From a virus: a stretch of 14,032 nucleotides of DNA. Shown one piece after another: positions 3,142 through 13,894 of this stretch (the stretch's first letter is position 1; the number at the start of each line of letters is the position of its first letter). The DNA is taken from the UHGV virus genome UHGV-0332040. One strand, written 5' to 3'. Position numbers and translations under genes: made by a program. The notes under the pieces were generated by a model. The model made no database searches, was not told the DNA's origin, and was given only the letters and a program-made list of their open reading frames with translations.

Positions 3142-5031
3142 TCAGAGGAAGCGGGAGATGTAACCCCAATTGCAGTTTTCAGGGCGGTACAACGCTGCCA
3201 GCTCATCAGGTACACCGGACGGCACCGGGGCAGAGTCGGCGTCATAGGTGATGGGGTCGCCATACAGAGCCAACGATGACCACAGCAGAAAAGCACGGGC
3301 AGGTTGACCGTCACGCCCGGCACGTCCGATCATCTGAACTAAATCGGGCAGGTCTTCGGGAACATAAGTGACAATTACGTTACGCACGCCAGAGATATCA
3401 GCCCCCAGCCCGAAGGCTTTAGTAGCAATCAGAACCGCGCCGGGCGTGCTGGCAAACCACGCAGCGTTAGCGTGACGCTGGTCGCGGCTCAGTCGCTCAA
3501 CGTCAGAATGGTAAGGCCGGGCGCGGTCTCCCAGTTCGTTGAGATACGCATACAGCATCTTGATACTGTCCACCATCACCAGCGTCTTCTCATCCAGCGG
3601 GAGGGCATCGACCAGACCAACGGCAGCCCGGCGCGTAGTTGCGCACTGCTGAACAGGAATAAGCTGGATGTTTTCACGGGCAGCACTGGCGCGGTAGGTG
3701 AGGAACTCGCCACGACAGCCAAGCTCTTTCATCAAGCCAGACTCATCACCTTTTCGCAGGGTCGCAGTAAACGCGCACCGCTGAGCATCCGGGAAGGCAT
3801 TTTTCAGGGTGTGTTTCATTGCAGGGAAAGCGTCCCGGAACTCCCATTCATCAACGGTATGAACCTCGTCAATGATAAATCTGTCCACACCAGCGGCCAT
3901 CAGCGCAGCCAGCACCTGATTGCCCGGCACCAGATGCTCAGGTGAAACTACGGCAACGTGGAAAGCGCCAGCAGCCAACCCCGCAAGCTGTTGCGCATTG
4001 CGTCGCCTCGGCAGCTTGTCGCCAAAGGCAACAGCGTGAACGCCAGTTTCTAGCAACTGCTGTAACACCTGCTGCTTGATGGTGTTTGTAGGCACAACAA
4101 TAACGGTCAGACCGTCATCAGAATCAGATTCAAATTGCAGGGCATAGGTGAATGCAGCCGTCTTTCCGTACCCGGTTGGCAGTACGGCCAATACATCGCG
4201 GTCACGGGCAAATACGGCGGCAGCTACGTCCTGCTGGCCGGGTCTCCAGTCTCTGCCATCTAGCGGTGGTAACGGTACGAATGCCGGGCGGTCGCATTGC
4301 TCCAGCTCGCGGAACCTGTACGGCGCGGTAACCAGCGGCGGGATGGACGGCGGCAGGCCAGCACCCCCAACGTCACAATGCAGATTCAGCGTATTGAATT
4401 TATCATCCGTGGGTTTCAGCTCACCGCACCACAACTGACGGAAAGCCGGGCAGTCACCCAGTCGCGTAAAGTCAGCATGGCGCATAGCTTCCAGCTTGCT
4501 CATGCCGCGACTGATACGACGCACGATCTTCTCATCGCAAATCAGAAACTCACGGCAGGCTTTGAGGAAGGCATTCTGCCCGGTTGTCGCTTCCGGGATG
4601 GAGTGCTCGCGCGGTTTAAGCGCAGCGTCATCAACGCGAACGCCGGGGAAATCTGGCGGCAGCGGCTCGGCGTACCGGGCAGGCTTTTTGTTTAGCCACA
4701 TCTCCAGCTCAGCGCGGCGGCAGTGGATTGCATCGCCCGGCTGGATAATCTGGCGCAACCCGGCATCAGCGCGGCGGGAATGTCGCTTGCGGCCAATTCC
4801 ATTCGCCTCTTTCCATTCACGGAACGACATAACTGAACCATCTGCATTGTAGAAATACTGCCCGGAAACGGTGTTAAGCGCTGCCTTCACTGGTCGCTGT
4901 TTAACAGGGCATAACTTGGAATGAGGTATAACGATCTTATCCGCAACCAGTTGCTGAGCATCCGCAGGCTCGGTGTTCAGCGGTTCGGCGTCAGCGGCCA
5001 GCGTAAGCAAGCGGTTTAAATTGGTTGGCAT
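3142..5031 (-). CDS. RecQ-family SF2 DNA helicase with an unassigned ~260-aa N-terminal domain (629 aa)
   Basis: Helicase motifs run in order: WRPGQQ (Q-motif-like), LPTGYGKT (motif I), IIDEVH (motif II, DExH) and FTATL (motif III). The end YHSD...LIATKAFGLGADISGVRNVIVTYVPEDLPDLVQMIGRAGRDG matches RecQ motifs V/VI (GRAGRDG). GGAG lies 9 nt upstream of the ATG at 5031. Confidence 0.85.
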   Translation of the reverse strand: MPTNLNRLLTLAADAEPLNTEPADAQQLVADKIVIPHSKLCPVKQRPVKAALNTVSGQYFYNADGSVMSFREWKEANGIGRKRHSRRADAGLRQIIQPGDAIHCRRAELEMWLNKKPARYAEPLPPDFPGVRVDDAALKPREHSIPEATTGQNAFLKACREFLICDEKIVRRISRGMSKLEAMRHADFTRLGDCPAFRQLWCGELKPTDDKFNTLNLHCDVGGAGLPPSIPPLVTAPYRFRELEQCDRPAFVPLPPLDGRDWRPGQQDVAAAVFARDRDVLAVLPTGYGKTAAFTYALQFESDSDDGLTVIVVPTNTIKQQVLQQLLETGVHAVAFGDKLPRRRNAQQLAGLAAGAFHVAVVSPEHLVPGNQVLAALMAAGVDRFIIDEVHTVDEWEFRDAFPAMKHTLKNAFPDAQRCAFTATLRKGDESGLMKELGCRGEFLTYRASAARENIQLIPVQQCATTRRAAVGLVDALPLDEKTLVMVDSIKMLYAYLNELGDRARPYHSDVERLSRDQRHANAAWFASTPGAVLIATKAFGLGADISGVRNVIVTYVPEDLPDLVQMIGRAGRDGQPARAFLLWSSLALYGDPITYDADSAPVPSGVPDELAALYRPENCNWGYISRFL

Positions 5032-6222: not shown

Positions 6223-6387
6223 TCAATGATTATCTGAATCAGTGTTATCAATTCCGAAATAACTCTTCCTCTCCTGTATTGATTCAATCATTTCTTTCAT
6301 TTCAAGAATCACTACCAGCTCAGCTAATAACCGTCTCAGTTCAACATTTGAATCATTAGCACGACACTTATTTTCTGAGTATTCCAT
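6223..6387 (-). CDS. Small charged helical protein (54 aa), below the ORF-track cutoff
   Basis: Hand translation gives MEYSENKCRANDSNVELRRLLAELVVILEMKEMIESIQERKSYFGIDNTDSDNH. GGGAG lies 8 nt upstream of the ATG at 6387. A candidate promoter lies upstream. The gene is AT-rich, moron-like in composition. Confidence 0.45.
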   Translation of the reverse strand: MEYSENKCRANDSNVELRRLLAELVVILEMKEMIESIQERKSYFGIDNTDSDNH

Positions 6388-6432
6388 ACGGTCAACTCCC
6401 TACGGTATAAGTCCATTCCAATCCGTTCACAG

Positions 6433-7089: not shown

Positions 7090-7207
7090 GCTGTAGGTCA
7101 TCCATCACCCACAGCCCAGTAACGGCCAGTGCTGGCACCTCATTTGGCTGTAGGTCAGCCCGACCCCACCGCCCAATAACCCCACCCGGCAGCAATGGCA
7201 CGGCACC
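7090..7207. repeat. Tandem pair of ~50-60 bp degenerate direct repeats starting GCTGTAGGTCA
   Basis: Unit 1 is 7090-7139 and unit 2 is 7147-7207. Both begin GCTGTAGGTCA and end ...GGCACC. TAATACGAAA is duplicated just upstream at 7016-7025 and 7080-7089. Confidence 0.65.
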
Positions 7208-7329: not shown

Positions 7330-7953
7330 TCAGACGCTGGCAGCCAGCTCACGCTTAATGCGGTAGAACGTTGCCCGGCTTATCCCGGCAGCTTTCATGA
7401 TGCGCTCCGGTTTCACACCCTGCGCCAGCATTTCCCTGACGGTCTCGCGAGCGGCGGCATCCTTCTGACTCCCACGATAAAGCCCCTCAGCTTTGGCTCG
7501 TTCAATGCCCTGCCGCTGGCGCATCAGTCGCGTCTCGTAGTCCACGCGGGCCATTGTAGCGAGGATATCGATCAGCATTGCGTTAACGGCTCTGAGGATG
7601 CCGCTGGTTAGCTCTGACGCGGTTTCGTTCAGCAACTGCCACGAGGTTGGCAGGTCAACGGCGACGATCACCAGCCCCTTATCCTGAATCCTCTGTTTCA
7701 GTGTCGCCCATTCCTTTTGTGTCAGGCGGCTTAGCCTGTCTATGCTTTCGACAAGTAGAACGTCGCCAGCCTCCGCCTCACCCAGCAGGCGCATCAGTTC
7801 AGGACGCTCCAGCCGCGCACCGCTGGCGTTCTCGATGTATCGCGCAGCAATAGACCAACCACGCTCATTAGCGAAATCCTCCAGCGCAGGAACGGCACGG
7901 TCGGCGTGTTGCTCGGCGGTGGATGCCCTGGCATACAGACGAACGTTATTCAT
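7330..7953 (-). CDS. Small serine recombinase (resolvase/invertase family, 207 aa)
   Basis: The N-terminal RLYARASTAEQ carries the catalytic-serine motif. VLLVESIDRLSRL is the resolvase core motif. ISRATFYRIKRE is the C-terminal HTH. GGAGGG lies 6 nt upstream of the ATG at 7953. Confidence 0.9.
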   Translation of the reverse strand: MNNVRLYARASTAEQHADRAVPALEDFANERGWSIAARYIENASGARLERPELMRLLGEAEAGDVLLVESIDRLSRLTQKEWATLKQRIQDKGLVIVAVDLPTSWQLLNETASELTSGILRAVNAMLIDILATMARVDYETRLMRQRQGIERAKAEGLYRGSQKDAAARETVREMLAQGVKPERIMKAAGISRATFYRIKRELAASV

Positions 7954-8210: not shown

Positions 8211-8536
8211 AAAGGCGTTGAATCAAACATTGCAACCGCAGCAGTAACCAGCCAGCATTTCGCGCCTGCAACGGTTGTCTCGGATGAGCAAAATCTTAGG
8301 GTTTTCTCAGCGACCCCTGACGCGCGGGCACGCACATGCGCACGGGGGCGCGGGCGAGCTATACAGTTGAGGGAGGGGCAACCATAAGCGTGCAATTTTT
8401 CAAGCCGGGACTTTTAACAGTGGGATTGTGAGGCTATTTTGCATTCAGAGAGTGAGGCTGTAGGGTAGCTCCCCTTGAACCAGATAACGCTAAGCTAACC
8501 ATTTTCCCCACTGCTTAAGCCACTTTGCGTTGACGT

Positions 8537-9037
8537 TCAGCACCCCACAGCAGCATTATCCGGCATCAGAAACGGAATCAGTTTAGTATCACCATGCACA
8601 TATAACGGGTGCATAGGCTCTCCCGTTGCGTTAATTTTAAAACACTTCGTATCTACAGGAAGGAACGCCCGTACTACGGCAGAGCGTTTCAGGTGCCGCC
8701 CTTCATTCCCCCACGCAGCAACAACGATACCAGCACCAGCTATCAATTCTGCCAGATACTTATCATTATCCGCCCCGACAGGCTCCGGGAATCTCATCAT
8801 CTCAAAGCGGTCAGTACACACATACGCGAACAGGTTCGCGATACGTACCCCCCCGAAGCCCCAGCTCTGCGCAAATGAGATACAACGTTTCAGTGTGGGG
8901 TCGTCAAGCTCTGCGTCCGCATACGATGGATTCAAACCGATGAAAAGAGCATAAGGCTTTGCAGCGTCCCACGTTCTGGAAATAGCGTAACGGTACTTCC
9001 CGCACACAGAGAAGATCGCGTCTTTGTTCACATCCAT
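8537..9037 (-). CDS. DUF1643-family protein (166 aa)
   Basis: From memory, this is the strong family pattern of DUF1643 proteins. It includes CGKYRY...R.W, LFIGLNPSYAD, DDPTLKRCISFAQSWGFGG, NLFAY, AAWGN and HPLY...TKLIPF. The start ATG at 9037 lies 2 nt after the stop of the upstream small ORF, with GAGGG as its SD. Confidence 0.85.
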   Translation of the reverse strand: MDVNKDAIFSVCGKYRYAISRTWDAAKPYALFIGLNPSYADAELDDPTLKRCISFAQSWGFGGVRIANLFAYVCTDRFEMMRFPEPVGADNDKYLAELIAGAGIVVAAWGNEGRHLKRSAVVRAFLPVDTKCFKINATGEPMHPLYVHGDTKLIPFLMPDNAAVGC

Positions 9038-9039
9038 GA

Positions 9040-9180
9040 TTAACCCTCTTCACTACGTTTATCATCCCGCATCGAGTCAATGAAGTCGCGTTGCTCCTGC
9101 GTCAGTTCCAGATTTTCTAACAACTTGTCTAATTCTATTTCGGCGGATTCTTGCTTCTGCAAACGCTCTTTGTCAGCCAT
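9040..9180 (-). CDS. Small highly charged coiled-coil-like protein (46 aa), below the ORF-track cutoff
   Basis: Hand translation gives MADKERLQKQESAEIELDKLLENLELTQEQRDFIDSMRDDKRSEEG. Its stop TAA (9040-9042) is followed 2 nt later by the ATG of the DUF1643 gene. An AT-rich promoter-like region lies upstream. Its own SD is weak. Confidence 0.5.
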   Translation of the reverse strand: MADKERLQKQESAEIELDKLLENLELTQEQRDFIDSMRDDKRSEEG

Positions 9181-9205
9181 GCCAAGCCCCACAAGATTAG
9201 GATTA

Positions 9206-9233
9206 ATCTTAGGCTACAAAATGATCAATACAA
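9206..9233 (-). promoter_or_regulatory. Candidate promoter of the small-ORF/DUF1643 operon (TTGTAT-16 nt-TAAGAT)
   Basis: On the minus strand the -35 is TTGTAT (9228-9233) and the -10 is TAAGAT (9206-9211). The motif CAATCCGTT (9238-9246, minus strand) abuts the -35. Confidence 0.3.
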
Positions 9234-9785
9234 ATGCAACGGATTGTTATTTATTACAGATACAAGAATTAAGGGGGAAATAATCAGGAGGGGATGCCCC
9301 GGACTGCCAGCACAGAACCGGGGCGAATGCGGACGGAGCCACCCATCAGCCGAATAACCATAGCCTATTTTCTGGCAATAGCAAGCCATAAGCGCCGTGT
9401 TGGGTACACTCAGCAGCAGCGCCATCGGCGCATCATCATCTCAATCTTGTACAATCATCCGTTCACTTATCGAGTACCGTTCATTTATGGCACGGTGAAC
9501 ACCACGGCAGAGCCAGCCCCTTTCCCGGACTGGTTAGGCTTCCCAACATCAGCTCGTTTATCCGTGGCGTGTCATCACGACAGGCGGGAACCGGACACCG
9601 CGCTAAGTGCGGAACAGATGAATGTTTCAGGGAATCATGCCGGGTGAACGGCTTTCAGTTCATGTTGGACTATCGCGGTATGACCAGTGGAACGACCGCC
9701 AGCGCTTTGCTAAACTCCCTGTTCACCGTTCAACAAATCGCGGCAACTATCAGGGTAAATAGCGGTACTTTGGTCACATCACCTT

Positions 9786-9875
9786 AGAGCTAACTCATTG
9801 AGTTATAAGGCTTTTAATGGGCTGGAGCGGGCGAAGGGAATCGAACCCTCATAGCTAACCCATTGAATTGTGAAC
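9786..9875. repeat. Imperfect 25-bp direct repeats bracketing the att core (AGCTAACYCATTGARTT)
   Basis: The copies at 9786-9810 and 9851-9875 match at about 18 of 25 positions by hand alignment. A further 9-mer, GCGGTACTT, lies at 9762-9770 and 9890-9898. Confidence 0.65.
9823..9850 (-). other. att core: 28-nt copy of the 3' end (T-arm, acceptor 3' strand, CCA) of tRNA-Gly(CCC), glyU type; not a complete tRNA
   Basis: The minus strand reads GAGGGTTCGATTCCCTTCGCCCGCTCCA. As I recall it, this matches the 3' end of E. coli glyU. Sequence 5' of it on the minus strand (9851 onward) cannot form the acceptor, D or anticodon arms. Confidence 0.85.
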
Positions 9876-9938
9876 CAAAATAAGTAATCGCGGTACTTAT
9901 CCCGGTAGTTGGTAGCGGTAGATTACAAGGTAATTACC

Positions 9939-11165
9939 ATGCCAATCAAGAAGACTTCTTATCTTTATGCAAACAAAGATGGGATATTCATCTTTCAAAT
10001 CTTTATCCCGGTGTACATGCGCCACTTATGGCACGGGCGGCGCTCACTCAAGAAATCGACAGGCACGCGGGACATCATGCAAGCTCGCATATTCCGTGAC
10101 CAATACTTATTAGAGTTCCGAAAGCTCCAGCTCATGATGAAACCGGATAACCCTATAAACCGGATTCATTCTGCTATTTCAGATCTTCACTTACTGGCGG
10201 GAATATCCAGCGACATTACCGCGCCCGTAACTACTCCAGCAGAACGAGGGAAACCAGCGTCGCCAAAATTGACAGATGTCAGTAAAGAATATGCAGAGCA
10301 ATACAAAGATCGGCGCTCTTATTCCACATTGAGTAAATCCGCTCGCGCTGTATCAGCATTCACTAAATCAACTAAGCGCCCAACAATTACAATAAACGGA
10401 ATCGGGCGGCGGCTCGTCTCTGACTTTCTGAAAGCGAACCAAGATAAGTTTTCCCGGCAGACGATGCAAAACTGGTTAACTTGCTTAGGTACGCTGTACG
10501 ACTTCGCCCGGCGTAAATATGACAATATCGCCCCTGATAATCCCTTTCACGGCCACAATCTGGAAGCCCGTCAGACAAACGAAAGTTACCAGCCGTTTGA
10601 ACCGCACCAGCTACAGACATTAACAAAAAAGGCAGGTGACGAAATAAGGGATGTAATAATAATCGGGCTGTATTCCGGGATGCGTCTTGATGAAATAGCC
10701 AGCATTAAACGGGATGAGGTTGTCACCATCGACGGCGTGCGGTGTTTCTATGTCAGTAAATCAAAAACAAAGGCGGGTATAAGGCATGTCCCTGTACACT
10801 CGCTGTTATTTGACATTGTTGATAAATACCTCGCGCAAAACAGCGGGGAGTACCTGCTCCCCCAATCCAACAAAATTAAACGCGCGGATGGTAAACGTGG
10901 GCCGTGGTATTCTCAGACATTTACCCGCTTACGTCGCCGGGTACTACCAACAGCCACAGAGCGCCAGTGTTTCCACTCCCTGCGTGGTCACTTCATCACC
11001 TGCTTAGACCGGGCAGGTGTACCAGAACAGCGCATAGGAGCTATTACCGGGCATACAGAGAAAAAGGCAAAGACGGAAGCATTTAAAACGTACAGCCAAG
11101 GGGCTGGGATGAAAGAACTATCTGAATACGTAGAGCTGGTAAGTTATCCAGAACTTGAATCATAA
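9939..11165 (+). CDS. int: Tyrosine recombinase / phage-type integrase (408 aa)
   Basis: The C-terminal catalytic pattern is present: GMRLDEI (Arg), HSLRGH (His-x-x-Arg) and GHTEK...FKTY (His and Tyr). It lies directly next to the tRNA-derived att core. The start is trimmed to the ATG at 9939; the track start at 9909 is a TTG. Confidence 0.9.
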   Translation: MPIKKTSYLYANKDGIFIFQIFIPVYMRHLWHGRRSLKKSTGTRDIMQARIFRDQYLLEFRKLQLMMKPDNPINRIHSAISDLHLLAGISSDITAPVTTPAERGKPASPKLTDVSKEYAEQYKDRRSYSTLSKSARAVSAFTKSTKRPTITINGIGRRLVSDFLKANQDKFSRQTMQNWLTCLGTLYDFARRKYDNIAPDNPFHGHNLEARQTNESYQPFEPHQLQTLTKKAGDEIRDVIIIGLYSGMRLDEIASIKRDEVVTIDGVRCFYVSKSKTKAGIRHVPVHSLLFDIVDKYLAQNSGEYLLPQSNKIKRADGKRGPWYSQTFTRLRRRVLPTATERQCFHSLRGHFITCLDRAGVPEQRIGAITGHTEKKAKTEAFKTYSQGAGMKELSEYVELVSYPELES

Positions 11166-11167
11166 TT

Positions 11168-11596
11168 TCAGGCAGGGTAAATAATCCCCAGCCCGCGATA
11201 CTGGCGGCGGTATTCTCTGACCAGAGCATCCGCCGTCGCCCTCGGCAGCTTCGCCATATGCCCGGTACGATAGCCACCCTCGGCAGAATTCGCTGCACGA
11301 TGTACAACAGCCCGCACGCGCCCGGTTCTGTGGTCGTGGTCGAGGGTCGTGCTGCTGAACGCAACAGCCCGCCCGGTAACGGCACACCGTCGATACTGAT
11401 AATTCCACAGAAAGCAACGCACCGCAGCCACGTCAGCACGGCGCAACTCCAGTCGCCCTGAACCATTCAACAGGAGGCGATACACATCGTCGAATGCAGC
11501 AGCGTTTCTAACGCGCTCAGCCAGCGGCATATTGCCAAGGAACTCCAGATAATCCCGCATTGCTTTTCTTAAAAGTTGGTCTGTCCGTGTAACCAT
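11168..11596 (-). CDS. Endonuclease VII-family (His-Me finger) protein lacking most zinc-binding cysteines (142 aa)
   Basis: CAVTGRAVAFSSTTLDHDHRTGRVRAVVHRAANSAEG aligns with the family pattern CxxCG...DHDHxTGxVRGLLCxxCNxxLG. The DHDH and Asn are retained but 3 of 4 Cys are replaced. GGAG lies about 10 nt upstream of the ATG at 11596. Confidence 0.7.
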   Translation of the reverse strand: MVTRTDQLLRKAMRDYLEFLGNMPLAERVRNAAAFDDVYRLLLNGSGRLELRRADVAAVRCFLWNYQYRRCAVTGRAVAFSSTTLDHDHRTGRVRAVVHRAANSAEGGYRTGHMAKLPRATADALVREYRRQYRGLGIIYPA

Positions 11597-12839: not shown

Positions 12840-13835
12840 TTACACAGCTTGTCGGAAATTGATAACGCAGTCAGGGCGGCGCAGTCCAACATTGAACAGG
12901 CGATATGAGTCCATCACCATCGTCATTTCGCGCTCATCATCCCACTGGCGATTGATAACGCTCTGCGCTTCGACTGTCACAAGTACAGACGCAGGCCGGA
13001 ACAGCGTCGCCCGCGTCAGCGCTTCCTCTGAGGTAACGTCATAATCAGCGCCCAGTTCATGCCCGGTAATAGCTTCCTGCGGGTAACTGTTCAGCTCAAT
13101 GACTCGTACCCCAGCGACATAGCCAACTCGACGCCATGCGTAATCGTTGCCACTATCCCGGCTGTAACGGACGTTCATCAGCTTCTTATGTTCCATCAGG
13201 ATGCTGAACCAAGCCGGGTCGATAAGCAGTACCAGCTCGGCCACCGGAATATCTTTCTCAGTGAGAAAGCGATTAGCAGCCGCTTTTACGACGTGAGCCA
13301 ATTCGTTTGCGGCGTCCTCTTCGCTCCCCGCTGTCAGGTCGAGCGATACAACGTTATCCGTTAGTGGGTTAAACGTTGGTTGCAGTGTCGGCGGCGGTAC
13401 AAAGTCAGTCGCTTTGATTAGCTGGATGGTGTGCGCTTCGTCGTAGAATTTAGCGTGAGCAGTACCCATATTGCGGCTCAGCTCTGCGCGAAAGGTGGGC
13501 GCTGTCCAGTCGTCCTGATAGTCAATCGGAATGCGGATATAGCTCAGCGTATCCACAGAGATAATCAGCTTATCCGACTTAACAGCGGTAGGCTCCAGCG
13601 ATTGCCCTGCGGTTCTGCCCTTCACCTCCAGATCACCACTCAGGCGATCAATGCGGTATTGGTTGCTGGCTTTCAGCGGCCTGTATGTAGACAGCCCCTC
13701 TGCCAGAAATACGGATTTGGACTCTAAACGGGTCTGGACATCCCGGTCATAAGCCTCGATGTGAATATCATTGTCGGATTCCACCCCGCCATAATGTGGG
13801 CGAAACAGATCGGGACTGTACGAAGTATCAGTCAT
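12840..13835 (-). CDS. Major capsid protein, T7 gp10-like (HK97 fold) (331 aa)
   Basis: By-eye alignment to T7 gp10A matches two blocks. FRAELSRNMGTAHA aligns with VRSEYTSQLGESLA. The C-terminal LFRPASVLVTVE...GLRRPDCVINF aligns with LFMHRSAVGTVK...GLRPEAAGAVVF. The start is trimmed to the ATG at 13835, with AGGAG 8 nt upstream; the track start at 13880 has no RBS. Confidence 0.75.
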   Translation of the reverse strand: MTDTSYSPDLFRPHYGGVESDNDIHIEAYDRDVQTRLESKSVFLAEGLSTYRPLKASNQYRIDRLSGDLEVKGRTAGQSLEPTAVKSDKLIISVDTLSYIRIPIDYQDDWTAPTFRAELSRNMGTAHAKFYDEAHTIQLIKATDFVPPPTLQPTFNPLTDNVVSLDLTAGSEEDAANELAHVVKAAANRFLTEKDIPVAELVLLIDPAWFSILMEHKKLMNVRYSRDSGNDYAWRRVGYVAGVRVIELNSYPQEAITGHELGADYDVTSEEALTRATLFRPASVLVTVEAQSVINRQWDDEREMTMVMDSYRLFNVGLRRPDCVINFRQAV

Positions 13836-13894
13836 AAACAAAACTCCTACGTAGGTTGATGAAGCCCGCGCCATCGTCATGGCACAGACGTGCG

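Follow-up and report, generated by a model that had tools for sequence, protein, structure and literature searches.

The DUF1643 gene of the virus genome UHGV-0332040 lies, as exchangeable cargo, in a variable slot of a mobile element, behind an AT-rich leader region and a resident gene for a small helical protein of 46 amino acids (aa), and its product is a candidate DNA glycosylase of the uracil-DNA glycosylase (UDG) superfamily. The window, i.e. the whole stretch of 14,032 nt to which all coordinates refer, is a circular permutation of a ~14-kb tRNA-Gly-integrating element of Enterobacteriaceae; comparison loci bear labels such as L001, L002 and L011 (L001 being Escherichia coli 5735 and L126 E. 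coli A17). The complete chain, which leads from the anatomy of the slot and the exchange of cargo to a glycosylase and to a role in conflict, is held with a probability of about 0.45, the anatomical part alone being very likely. The original prediction had seen here an operon in which a charged peptide could act as partner, inhibitor or antitoxin-like regulator of the DUF1643 protein. That a DUF gene is found in the variable slot of a mobile element is unsurprising in kind, and the proposed two-gene system fails. The locus is made up of the following features:

9181..9290, minus strand: AT-rich upstream (leader) region, 35.5% GC versus 52.9% for the window, with the conserved blocks GTTGCA (9240-9235) and TAGCCTAAGATTAATCCTAA (9216-9197)
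9180-9040, minus strand: resident small leader gene (ATG at 9180, TAA at 9042-9040), 46 aa, or 50 aa if GTG at 9192 is the start; recognized from its translation, its ratio of non-synonymous to synonymous substitution rates (dN/dS) and homologues in L001, L106/L126, L011-14 and L112
9035..9048, minus strand: coupling junction, comprising GAGGG (9048-9044), TAA (9042-9040), TC (9039-9038) and ATG (9037-9035)
9037 to 8537, minus strand: DUF1643 gene, 166 codons; exchangeable cargo and candidate UDG-superfamily DNA glycosylase
8410..8536, no strand: distal boundary of the variable module, homology to relatives with other cargo ending between 8409 and 8555

The content of the slot was compared in five relatives, and unrelated genes, or none, are found at the position of the DUF1643 gene:

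E. coli 5735, the nearest relative within the species (93% of the window aligned at 98.9% identity): a 50-aa open reading frame (ORF) and an unrelated 136-aa gene instead of DUF1643
L097 type (~39 genomes): the 136-aa gene behind a DUF3800 gene and a 190-aa gene
L002: a 152-aa and a 259-aa gene
L096: nothing

In blastn comparisons, homology ends at 8428 (L001), 8554 (L002) or 8409 (L096 and L104) and resumes at 9197, and the module 8556-9387 is common to other backbones (L011-13). The DUF3800 protein of the slot matches the PADLOC candidate PDC-M04A (E 1.5e-21). A second variable slot, located between int and the endonuclease VII gene (~11166-11170), is empty in the window; it holds a C5 DNA methyltransferase and a type II restriction enzyme (PADLOC REase_II, 8e-123) in L096 (707-2858), and hypothetical genes in L097 (2204-2848) and L002 (4235-4815). 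The slot behaves as an accessory, perhaps a defence, hotspot, and the earlier description of the locus as a cargo slot beside att is borne out by its varying content and by the att core at 9822-9850. The position was also said to be integrase-proximal, which is correct for the circular form represented by the window, where the pair lies ~640 bp from attP, across from int, and incorrect for integrated copies, where the two genes are the first at the element end opposite int and read inwards. The exact DUF1643 protein is found on at least 24 contigs (99 collection blocks per index), each time in the same arrangement beside actS/tRNA-Gly.

The segment GTTGC...TAGCCTRAGAYTAATCYTAA (9240-9197) is kept upstream of the small ORF in all variants, the distant L001 and L106 included (five-way alignment); therefore, the small ORF and its upstream region are regarded as the resident head of the slot. 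Behind homologues of the small ORF stand three unrelated genes, namely DUF1643, the 136-aa gene of E. coli 5735, which follows a homologous 50-aa ORF after a 39-nt gap, and a 93-aa DUF6150 gene in E. coli A17 (L126 7123-7556), where a third variant of 48 aa is separated from it by 5 nt. The 136-aa gene also occurs in ~39 genomes without the small ORF. Comparison with variants whose proteins are 85-87% identical gives a dN/dS of 0.08-0.14 and so identifies the small ORF as a real gene under purifying selection; a ratio of ~0.1 implies that the peptide product itself matters. The protein contains 15 acidic and 8 basic residues (charge -7.5, pI 4.4) and its predicted structure is a single unbroken helix from residue 2 to residue 45 (pLDDT, the per-residue model confidence, 94; AlphaFold/AF2, single-sequence prediction). 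The earlier picture of a highly charged peptide agrees with this; its description as unannotated does not hold throughout, for the ORF is annotated as a 46-aa gene in several assemblies. The core ELxxLLxxLxLTxEQRDFIxSM is retained in diverged homologues. Searches with the peptide retrieved near-identical copies only, because short queries cannot reach significance among 5.8 billion sequences; a degenerate DNA pattern for EQRDFIxSM gave 3 true cases among 15 matches in metagenomes and none in viral contigs.

The two genes differ in their history. Nucleotide identity is 84-86% over the small ORF and rises to 98-100% at the first DUF1643 codons (versus L011 and L013), and the synonymous substitution rate (dS) is 0.82 in the small ORF versus 0.12 in DUF1643, a sevenfold gap; the step in identity and the gap in dS at the junction mean that the genes have separate histories and that their junction is a recombination breakpoint. 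These data bear directly on the alternative of a two-component system, in which the acidic peptide would be dedicated to DUF1643 as its inhibitor, its antitoxin or a regulator mimicking DNA. Such a partnership would agree with the 2-nt stop-start gap with its internal Shine-Dalgarno sequence, with the acidic and helical nature of the peptide, which recalls some DNA mimics and Ung inhibitors, with the integrity of the pair in all copies whose DUF1643 is 96-100% identical, and with the clusters of the staphylococcal cassette chromosome (SCC), which place a small acidic Ung inhibitor with DUF1643 (PMC7581432). It is contradicted, besides the breakpoint and the unrelated genes that follow small-ORF homologues, by a survey of 80 diverse DUF1643 loci (different species), not one of which has a homologue of the small ORF or any consistent small upstream ORF, and by enterobacterial DUF1643 homologues at 68-73% identity that are without it. 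Across bacteria no conserved neighbour of DUF1643 was found, the largest neighbour cluster comprising 8 of the 80 loci and consisting of unrelated housekeeping or signalling genes. Furthermore, the peptide has no match in Pfam (E <= 0.01), PADLOC or NCBIfam, SAUGI/DUF950 included. The partner, inhibitor or antitoxin role advanced by the original prediction is therefore not supported, and a dedicated two-component system is judged very improbable.

As for the way in which the slot would work, cargo genes would be recombined in behind the AT-rich leader region and the resident small gene. The breakpoint falls at the stop/start junction, so that incoming cargo would be transcribed from the leader region and, with gaps of 2-5 nt, would be translationally coupled as well. 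The tight coupling noted earlier is indeed present, the stop of the small ORF and the ATG of DUF1643 being 2 nt apart (TC, 9039-9038) and the Shine-Dalgarno sequence GAGGG of DUF1643 falling within the 3' end of the small ORF. The AT-rich region 9181-9290 is probably the promoter/operator of the slot. Upstream of it lies one more conserved feature:

9285..9301, minus strand: terminator-like GC-rich hairpin with T-rich tail (terminator-like scan), conserved in L001, L011 and L112

This hairpin may insulate the slot from att-side transcription.

The motif CAATCCGTT was tried as a shared regulatory site, having been placed by the original prediction at the operon, at the promoter of a 54-aa ORF and in the att arm, and was rejected. 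It has two exact copies only, at 6419-6427 (plus strand) and 9238-9246 (minus strand), in opposite orientation relative to the downstream genes, and no copy was found in the att arm; with up to one mismatch, its count equals chance (45/200 shuffles). The corresponding position reads CAACCCGTT in L011 and L112 and is absent in L106. The chance-level count, the opposed orientations and the missing conservation rule the candidate out.

A few observations concern the relatives of the small gene. The 54-aa ORF (6223-6387, minus strand), an annotated gene in RefSeq relatives, lies upstream of the helicase block; its product is weakly paralogous to the 46-aa protein (27-33% identity, E ~1e-3 in a very small search), with which it shares the length class and an ELxxLL...IES pattern. 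The element may use two related small helical proteins, each heading a gene block. The DUF6150 protein of L126 contains internal SRSVADLLVC-like repeats. The island in which it is found, with the pair at the host junction, is located beside yciO and is unrelated to the element of the window, with YagK/YfjJ, DUF4238, a serine recombinase, a RelA/SpoT-domain protein and a tyrosine integrase.

The cargo of the window belongs to the DUF1643 family, as originally called. The search with profile hidden Markov models gives a match to Pfam PF07799 (E 2e-38, 131.9 bits versus a cut-off of 22.5), in which the whole profile (1-134 of 134) is aligned on residues 16-145, and phrog_3230 (PHROG 3230) is matched with E 1.4e-51. 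Ten residues are invariant in an alignment of 83 sequences, i.e. R15, N35, P36, T47, N67, W108, G109, P140, H142 and L144, and all are present in the window protein. When the 83 homologues were scanned against Pfam at E <= 10, DUF1643 was the sole match, and the structure matches in BFVD are phage DUF1643 proteins only. The predicted, alignment-based model (pLDDT 94, predicted template modelling score (pTM) 0.89) consists of an N-terminal hairpin followed by a beta-alpha-beta core.

A link with the UDG superfamily is suggested by profile-profile comparison. Against a deep MUG/TDG profile of 60 sequences, built from 59 representatives clustered at 50% identity, hhalign aligned DUF1643 colinearly over residues 23-150 with a score of 34.5, a probability of 64% and P 6.4e-5, the controls (2 reversed, 8 column-shuffled) giving scores of 9-20 and P 0.018-0.77; an earlier run against a shallow MUG alignment, superseded by that with the deep profile, had aligned motif A alone (probability 6%). 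In both runs FIGLNPS is aligned to FCGINPG of MUG, which places the invariant N35 on the catalytic N18. Further on, ANLF is paired with TNLV of MUG/TDG, VVAAWG coincides with strand 3, and the stretch around P140 and H142 falls on the last motif; P140, H142 and L144 sit where motif B is expected, in the low-confidence part of the alignment. The combination of Asn-type chemistry and a motif-B histidine is known from SMUG1. DUF1643 is probably a distant member of the UDG superfamily, with a putative activity of this Asn and His type that is read from sequence comparison.

If so, the attacking water would be positioned by N35 (GLNPS, behind strand 1), a task that falls to N18 in MUG and to an Asn in SMUG1. 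The base pocket would be lined by N67 and W108-G109, which follow strands 2 and 3, respectively, and H142-P143, behind strand 4, would stand in for the HPS motif. Catalysis would consist in flipping out a uracil or 5-substituted pyrimidine and removing it, with an abasic site as the result, and no partner would be needed. As exchangeable cargo, the enzyme would serve in mobile-element conflict by damaging incoming phage DNA that contains such bases.

A number of results, assembled in this and the following paragraph, weigh against the reading just given. With regard to the slot, each of the alternative pairings of small ORF and cargo is known from one genomic context, and a consensus scan found no sigma-70 consensus promoter upstream of the small ORF, the AT-rich upstream region claimed earlier being real and the promoter placed in it putative. 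With regard to the glycosylase, HMMER searches with the protein and with the 83-sequence profile against PDB sequences returned no UDG and no significant match, HMMER found no link between DUF1643 and the Pfam UDG family, and Foldseek against the PDB returned no UDG and nothing significant, the weak matches being to alpha/beta hydrolases and GDH only; the UDG-like fold of the original prediction thus stands as a moderate profile-profile link and did not appear in the structure search. At default confidence, hhalign retains 16 reliable columns only, i.e. those of motif A. It could accordingly be proposed that DUF1643 is not a DNA glycosylase, its likeness to UDG motifs being convergent, but some other three-layer alpha/beta protein, such as a nucleotide/nucleoside N-glycosidase, a Toprim-like nucleic-acid enzyme or a non-catalytic binding module. 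The silence of Foldseek and a profile-profile probability of just 64%, with high confidence confined to one motif, speak in its favour; however, four strand-end motifs are colinear with the UDG motifs, the hhalign score is clear of all ten controls, and the invariant residues do not include the acidic E / DxD set that Toprim needs. A protein of this other kind is considered quite improbable.

More weight attaches to the possibility that anatomy and chemistry are as proposed, and that the enzyme serves the element's own DNA instead of defence: a uracil or damaged-base glycosylase, or a DNA-binding UDG-like accessory factor, would keep the DNA of the element, phage or SCC clean or process it, perhaps independently of host Ung or with resistance to its inhibitors. 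DUF1643 is found in 144 phage records (69 Pseudomonas, 30 Caulobacter; also Mycobacterium, Stenotrophomonas and Bacillus), many of them of virulent phages, including Pseudomonas and phiCbK-like ones, within blocks of DNA-metabolism genes; in mycobacteriophage Purky, it is flanked by two DNA methyltransferase genes, with RecT, RusA and a DNA-repair gene near. SCC elements conserve DUF950 (SaUGI), DUF960 and DUF1643 beside recombinases and replication genes (PMC7581432). Some bacterial copies adjoin mfd or other housekeeping genes, identity within the family is 40-56% across phyla, with invariant residues of catalytic type, and the DUF1643 protein has no match in PADLOC (2023 database), a defence database, or in NCBIfam. 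These facts on phages, SCC, housekeeping contexts and conservation across phyla fit a conserved DNA-maintenance enzyme no less well than a defence effector. On the other side, the gene occupies a variable slot, not the backbone, and is replaced by unrelated genes in a relative 98.9% identical; candidate defence genes are its slot-mates in relatives; and several enterobacterial homologues are found in defence-type islands, e.g. one from Klebsiella (69% identity) whose island contains SIR2/DUF4365 and Shedu-like genes and one from Enterobacter close to HsdR, a type I R subunit being near DUF1643 in 4 of the 80 loci. UDG-superfamily enzymes are known as antiphage effectors, namely Brig1, Brig2 and Brig3 (PMC11078745; 10.1101/2025.10.29.685425; 10.64898/2026.02.25.707755). 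Service to the element's own DNA is held to be somewhat unlikely for this copy, for which a conflict role is slightly favoured because the gene is here the cargo of a slot and not part of the backbone; the assignment of a defence role in this element is, nevertheless, tentative.

The broadest form of the proposal goes further: DUF1643 would be an unrecognized, active family of the UDG superfamily (SMUG/MUG-type Asn plus His), serving many mobile elements as their own base-excision enzyme that escapes Ung inhibitors such as SaUGI, and acting either on the modified DNA of competitors or on the uracil-containing replication products of the element itself; in the present element, it would be housed in an expression platform (leader region plus 46-aa gene) able to drive any cargo. 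Taken in full, this is unlikely.

The subject is of relevance since three small conserved ORFs without an assigned function are found in the core of SCCmec, which gives rise to methicillin-resistant Staphylococcus aureus, and DUF1643 is one of them, besides being widespread in phages; the literature searched assigns no function to PF07799/COG4333. That DUF1643 is a glycosylase of the UDG superfamily whose catalytic residues are N35 and H142 is a testable hypothesis. If true, it would define a new glycosylase family and bear on the handling of uracil and modified bases by mobile elements and on glycosylase-based antiphage defences. Two unrelated islands at least have, on their att side, a resident small gene with a swapped gene behind it, which suggests a reusable slot for the expression of accessory cargo.

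Comparison with known systems highlights both likenesses and differences. As in the ccr complex of SCC/SCCmec, the PF07799 protein (DUF1643; COG4333; PHROG 3230) is a full-length, small, stand-alone protein of ~160 aa on a mobile element with a serine recombinase and a helicase. However, the SCC gene belongs to a conserved core downstream of SaUGI and DUF960, whereas here DUF1643 is exchangeable cargo behind an unrelated 46-aa gene in a Gram-negative, satellite-like element; the 46-aa protein has no match to SaUGI (DUF950) or DUF960 (Pfam, E <= 0.01), and the only feature in common is the adjacency of serine recombinase and DUF1643. With MUG/TDG (family 2) and SMUG1 (family 3), DUF1643 shares the size (MUG has 168 aa) and the order of motifs, i.e. 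G-[IL]-N-P-x at strand 1, N at strand 2, G at strand 3 and P-x at strand 4. The last motif of SMUG1 and of Ung contains a His, as does the putative one of DUF1643. The likeness is detected from profile to profile only (P 6e-5), and DUF1643 has an extra N-terminal beta-hairpin (residues 3-21). The Brig proteins resemble it as single-protein effectors of a presumably common superfamily, found on mobile DNA or in defence islands, and could provide the mechanistic template of modified-base excision leading to abasic sites. They are larger (Brig3 has at least 225 residues, and the catalytic residues of Brig1 are numbered up to 147), and DUF1643 is, in contrast, common in phages themselves and in housekeeping contexts. 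A specific relation to Brig1, Brig2 or Brig3, which the original prediction had raised for Brig1, could not be shown beyond superfamily level, with no PADLOC (2023) match and no Brig entry among the PDB matches.

The slot itself recalls the accessory/defence hotspots of phage satellites (PMC9122126), which belong to an integrative element depending on a helper phage: variable genes lie between conserved flanks near the element end, with restriction-modification or candidate defence genes in relatives. It differs in that the element is of another family, with its own major capsid, scaffold-like protein, RecQ-like helicase, HNH, endonuclease VII and serine recombinase, and in that the resident gene for a small protein remains in the slot through changes of cargo. 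A different parallel is offered by class 1 integrons. There, ORF-11 in attI1 is a short ORF that enhances translation of the cassette by coupling. By analogy, the short resident ORF directly upstream of the exchangeable position could let incoming genes gain expression; unlike ORF-11, the peptide itself is here under purifying selection, and exchange is apparently by ordinary recombination, not by attC/attI integration.

The remaining features of the element that are relevant to its nature and to the surroundings of the slot are the following:

9822..9850, no strand: attP core CTGGAGCGGGCGAAGGGAATCGAACCCTC, i.e. the tRNA-Gly 3' end, duplicated at both ends of integrated copies (overlap of left and right junction matches; alignment to tRNA-Gly junctions; annotated tRNA-Gly in L002)
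9909..11165, plus strand: tyrosine integrase (Pfam Phage_integrase; a site-specific integrase in L001), on the other side of attP
7330..7953, minus strand: small serine recombinase of the backbone, 207 aa (Resolvase and HTH_7), next downstream of the cargo on the same strand; orthologues 80-99% identical in related elements
8261..8409, no strand: non-coding 149-bp segment between the cargo and the serine recombinase gene
12840-13880, strand not given: major head protein (phrog_267, 6.9e-70)
555-1241, strand not given: scaffold-like protein (phrog_1018)

Other genes code for endonuclease VII-like and HNH proteins, a RecQ-like DEAD helicase and several small proteins. Virion genes are thus present, and no portal, terminase or tail gene was recognized in the 14 kb; from this gene content, the element looks like a helper-dependent, capsid-encoding satellite. 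Its family looks unmatched to P4, to phage-inducible chromosomal islands (PICI) and to capsid-forming PICI (cf-PICI) when compared by their descriptions. Relatives occur in ~150 complete E. coli genomes, where they occupy tRNA-Gly, tRNA-Leu or other sites, and a search of IMG/VR with the recombinase for related elements gave 5 loci; a megablast search of the window against the phage collection gave no match, and Rfam found nothing in the whole window.

The non-coding segment 8261-8409 recurs with 100% identity in ~96 complete E. coli genomes from which the remainder of the element is missing; it lies there in a tRNA-Leu island, adjoining another small serine recombinase (27% identical), and other cargo follows (L104). 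The segment could be a recombinase target or a recombination hotspot. A structured RNA was considered for it and is not supported, there being no Rfam match and no RNA fold signal (z-scores +1.2 and -0.05). An invertible-segment or cassette role for the serine recombinase was likewise discarded, as no convincing inverted repeats were found around the cargo.

With respect to this recombinase, a small serine recombinase adjoins DUF1643 in 5 of 6 contexts in Enterobacterales (DUF1643 identity >=68%), versus 2 of the 80 diverse loci; the contexts are L015 5239-6468, L016 5248-6456, L122 6185-7471, L011 904-2627 and 7330-9037 in the window. The recombinases involved belong to three clades, between which identity is no more than 27-47%. 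Staphylococcal SCC likewise places DUF1643 near the ccr serine recombinases, and examples of the phage contexts mentioned above are KPP10 (L124 4010-4510) and Purky (L125 3962-4474).

Elsewhere in the element, the helicase (3142-5031, minus strand; 629 aa) matches the PADLOC model DpdF PDLC02858 with E = 0 over all 504 profile positions; with NCBIfam DpdF, the same protein, which is also RecQ-like, scores no more than 108 bits, the cut-off being 550. PDLC02858 probably describes the helicases of this element family and not those of the Dpd deazaguanine system, and is a likely source of false 'Dpd' calls. In E. coli 5735 (L001 1-4000 and 18850-22583), one set of four genes (two hypothetical ones, DUF4145 and a site-specific integrase) is found on either side of the element, whose right junction is not tRNA-Gly sequence; the flanking genes being the same, the element is therefore either part of a tandem duplication with neighbouring island DNA or located in an island that is itself duplicated. 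A 34-nt sequence that occurs twice in direct orientation (7090-7123 and 7147-7180; 79% identical, 57 bp apart), close to the serine recombinase gene on its downstream side, could be an iteron-like or res-type site. Finally, a 22-nt direct repeat (9736-9757 and 9886-9907; 77% identical) lies on either side of the att core, where its two copies are plausible as putative arm-type binding sites of the integrase.

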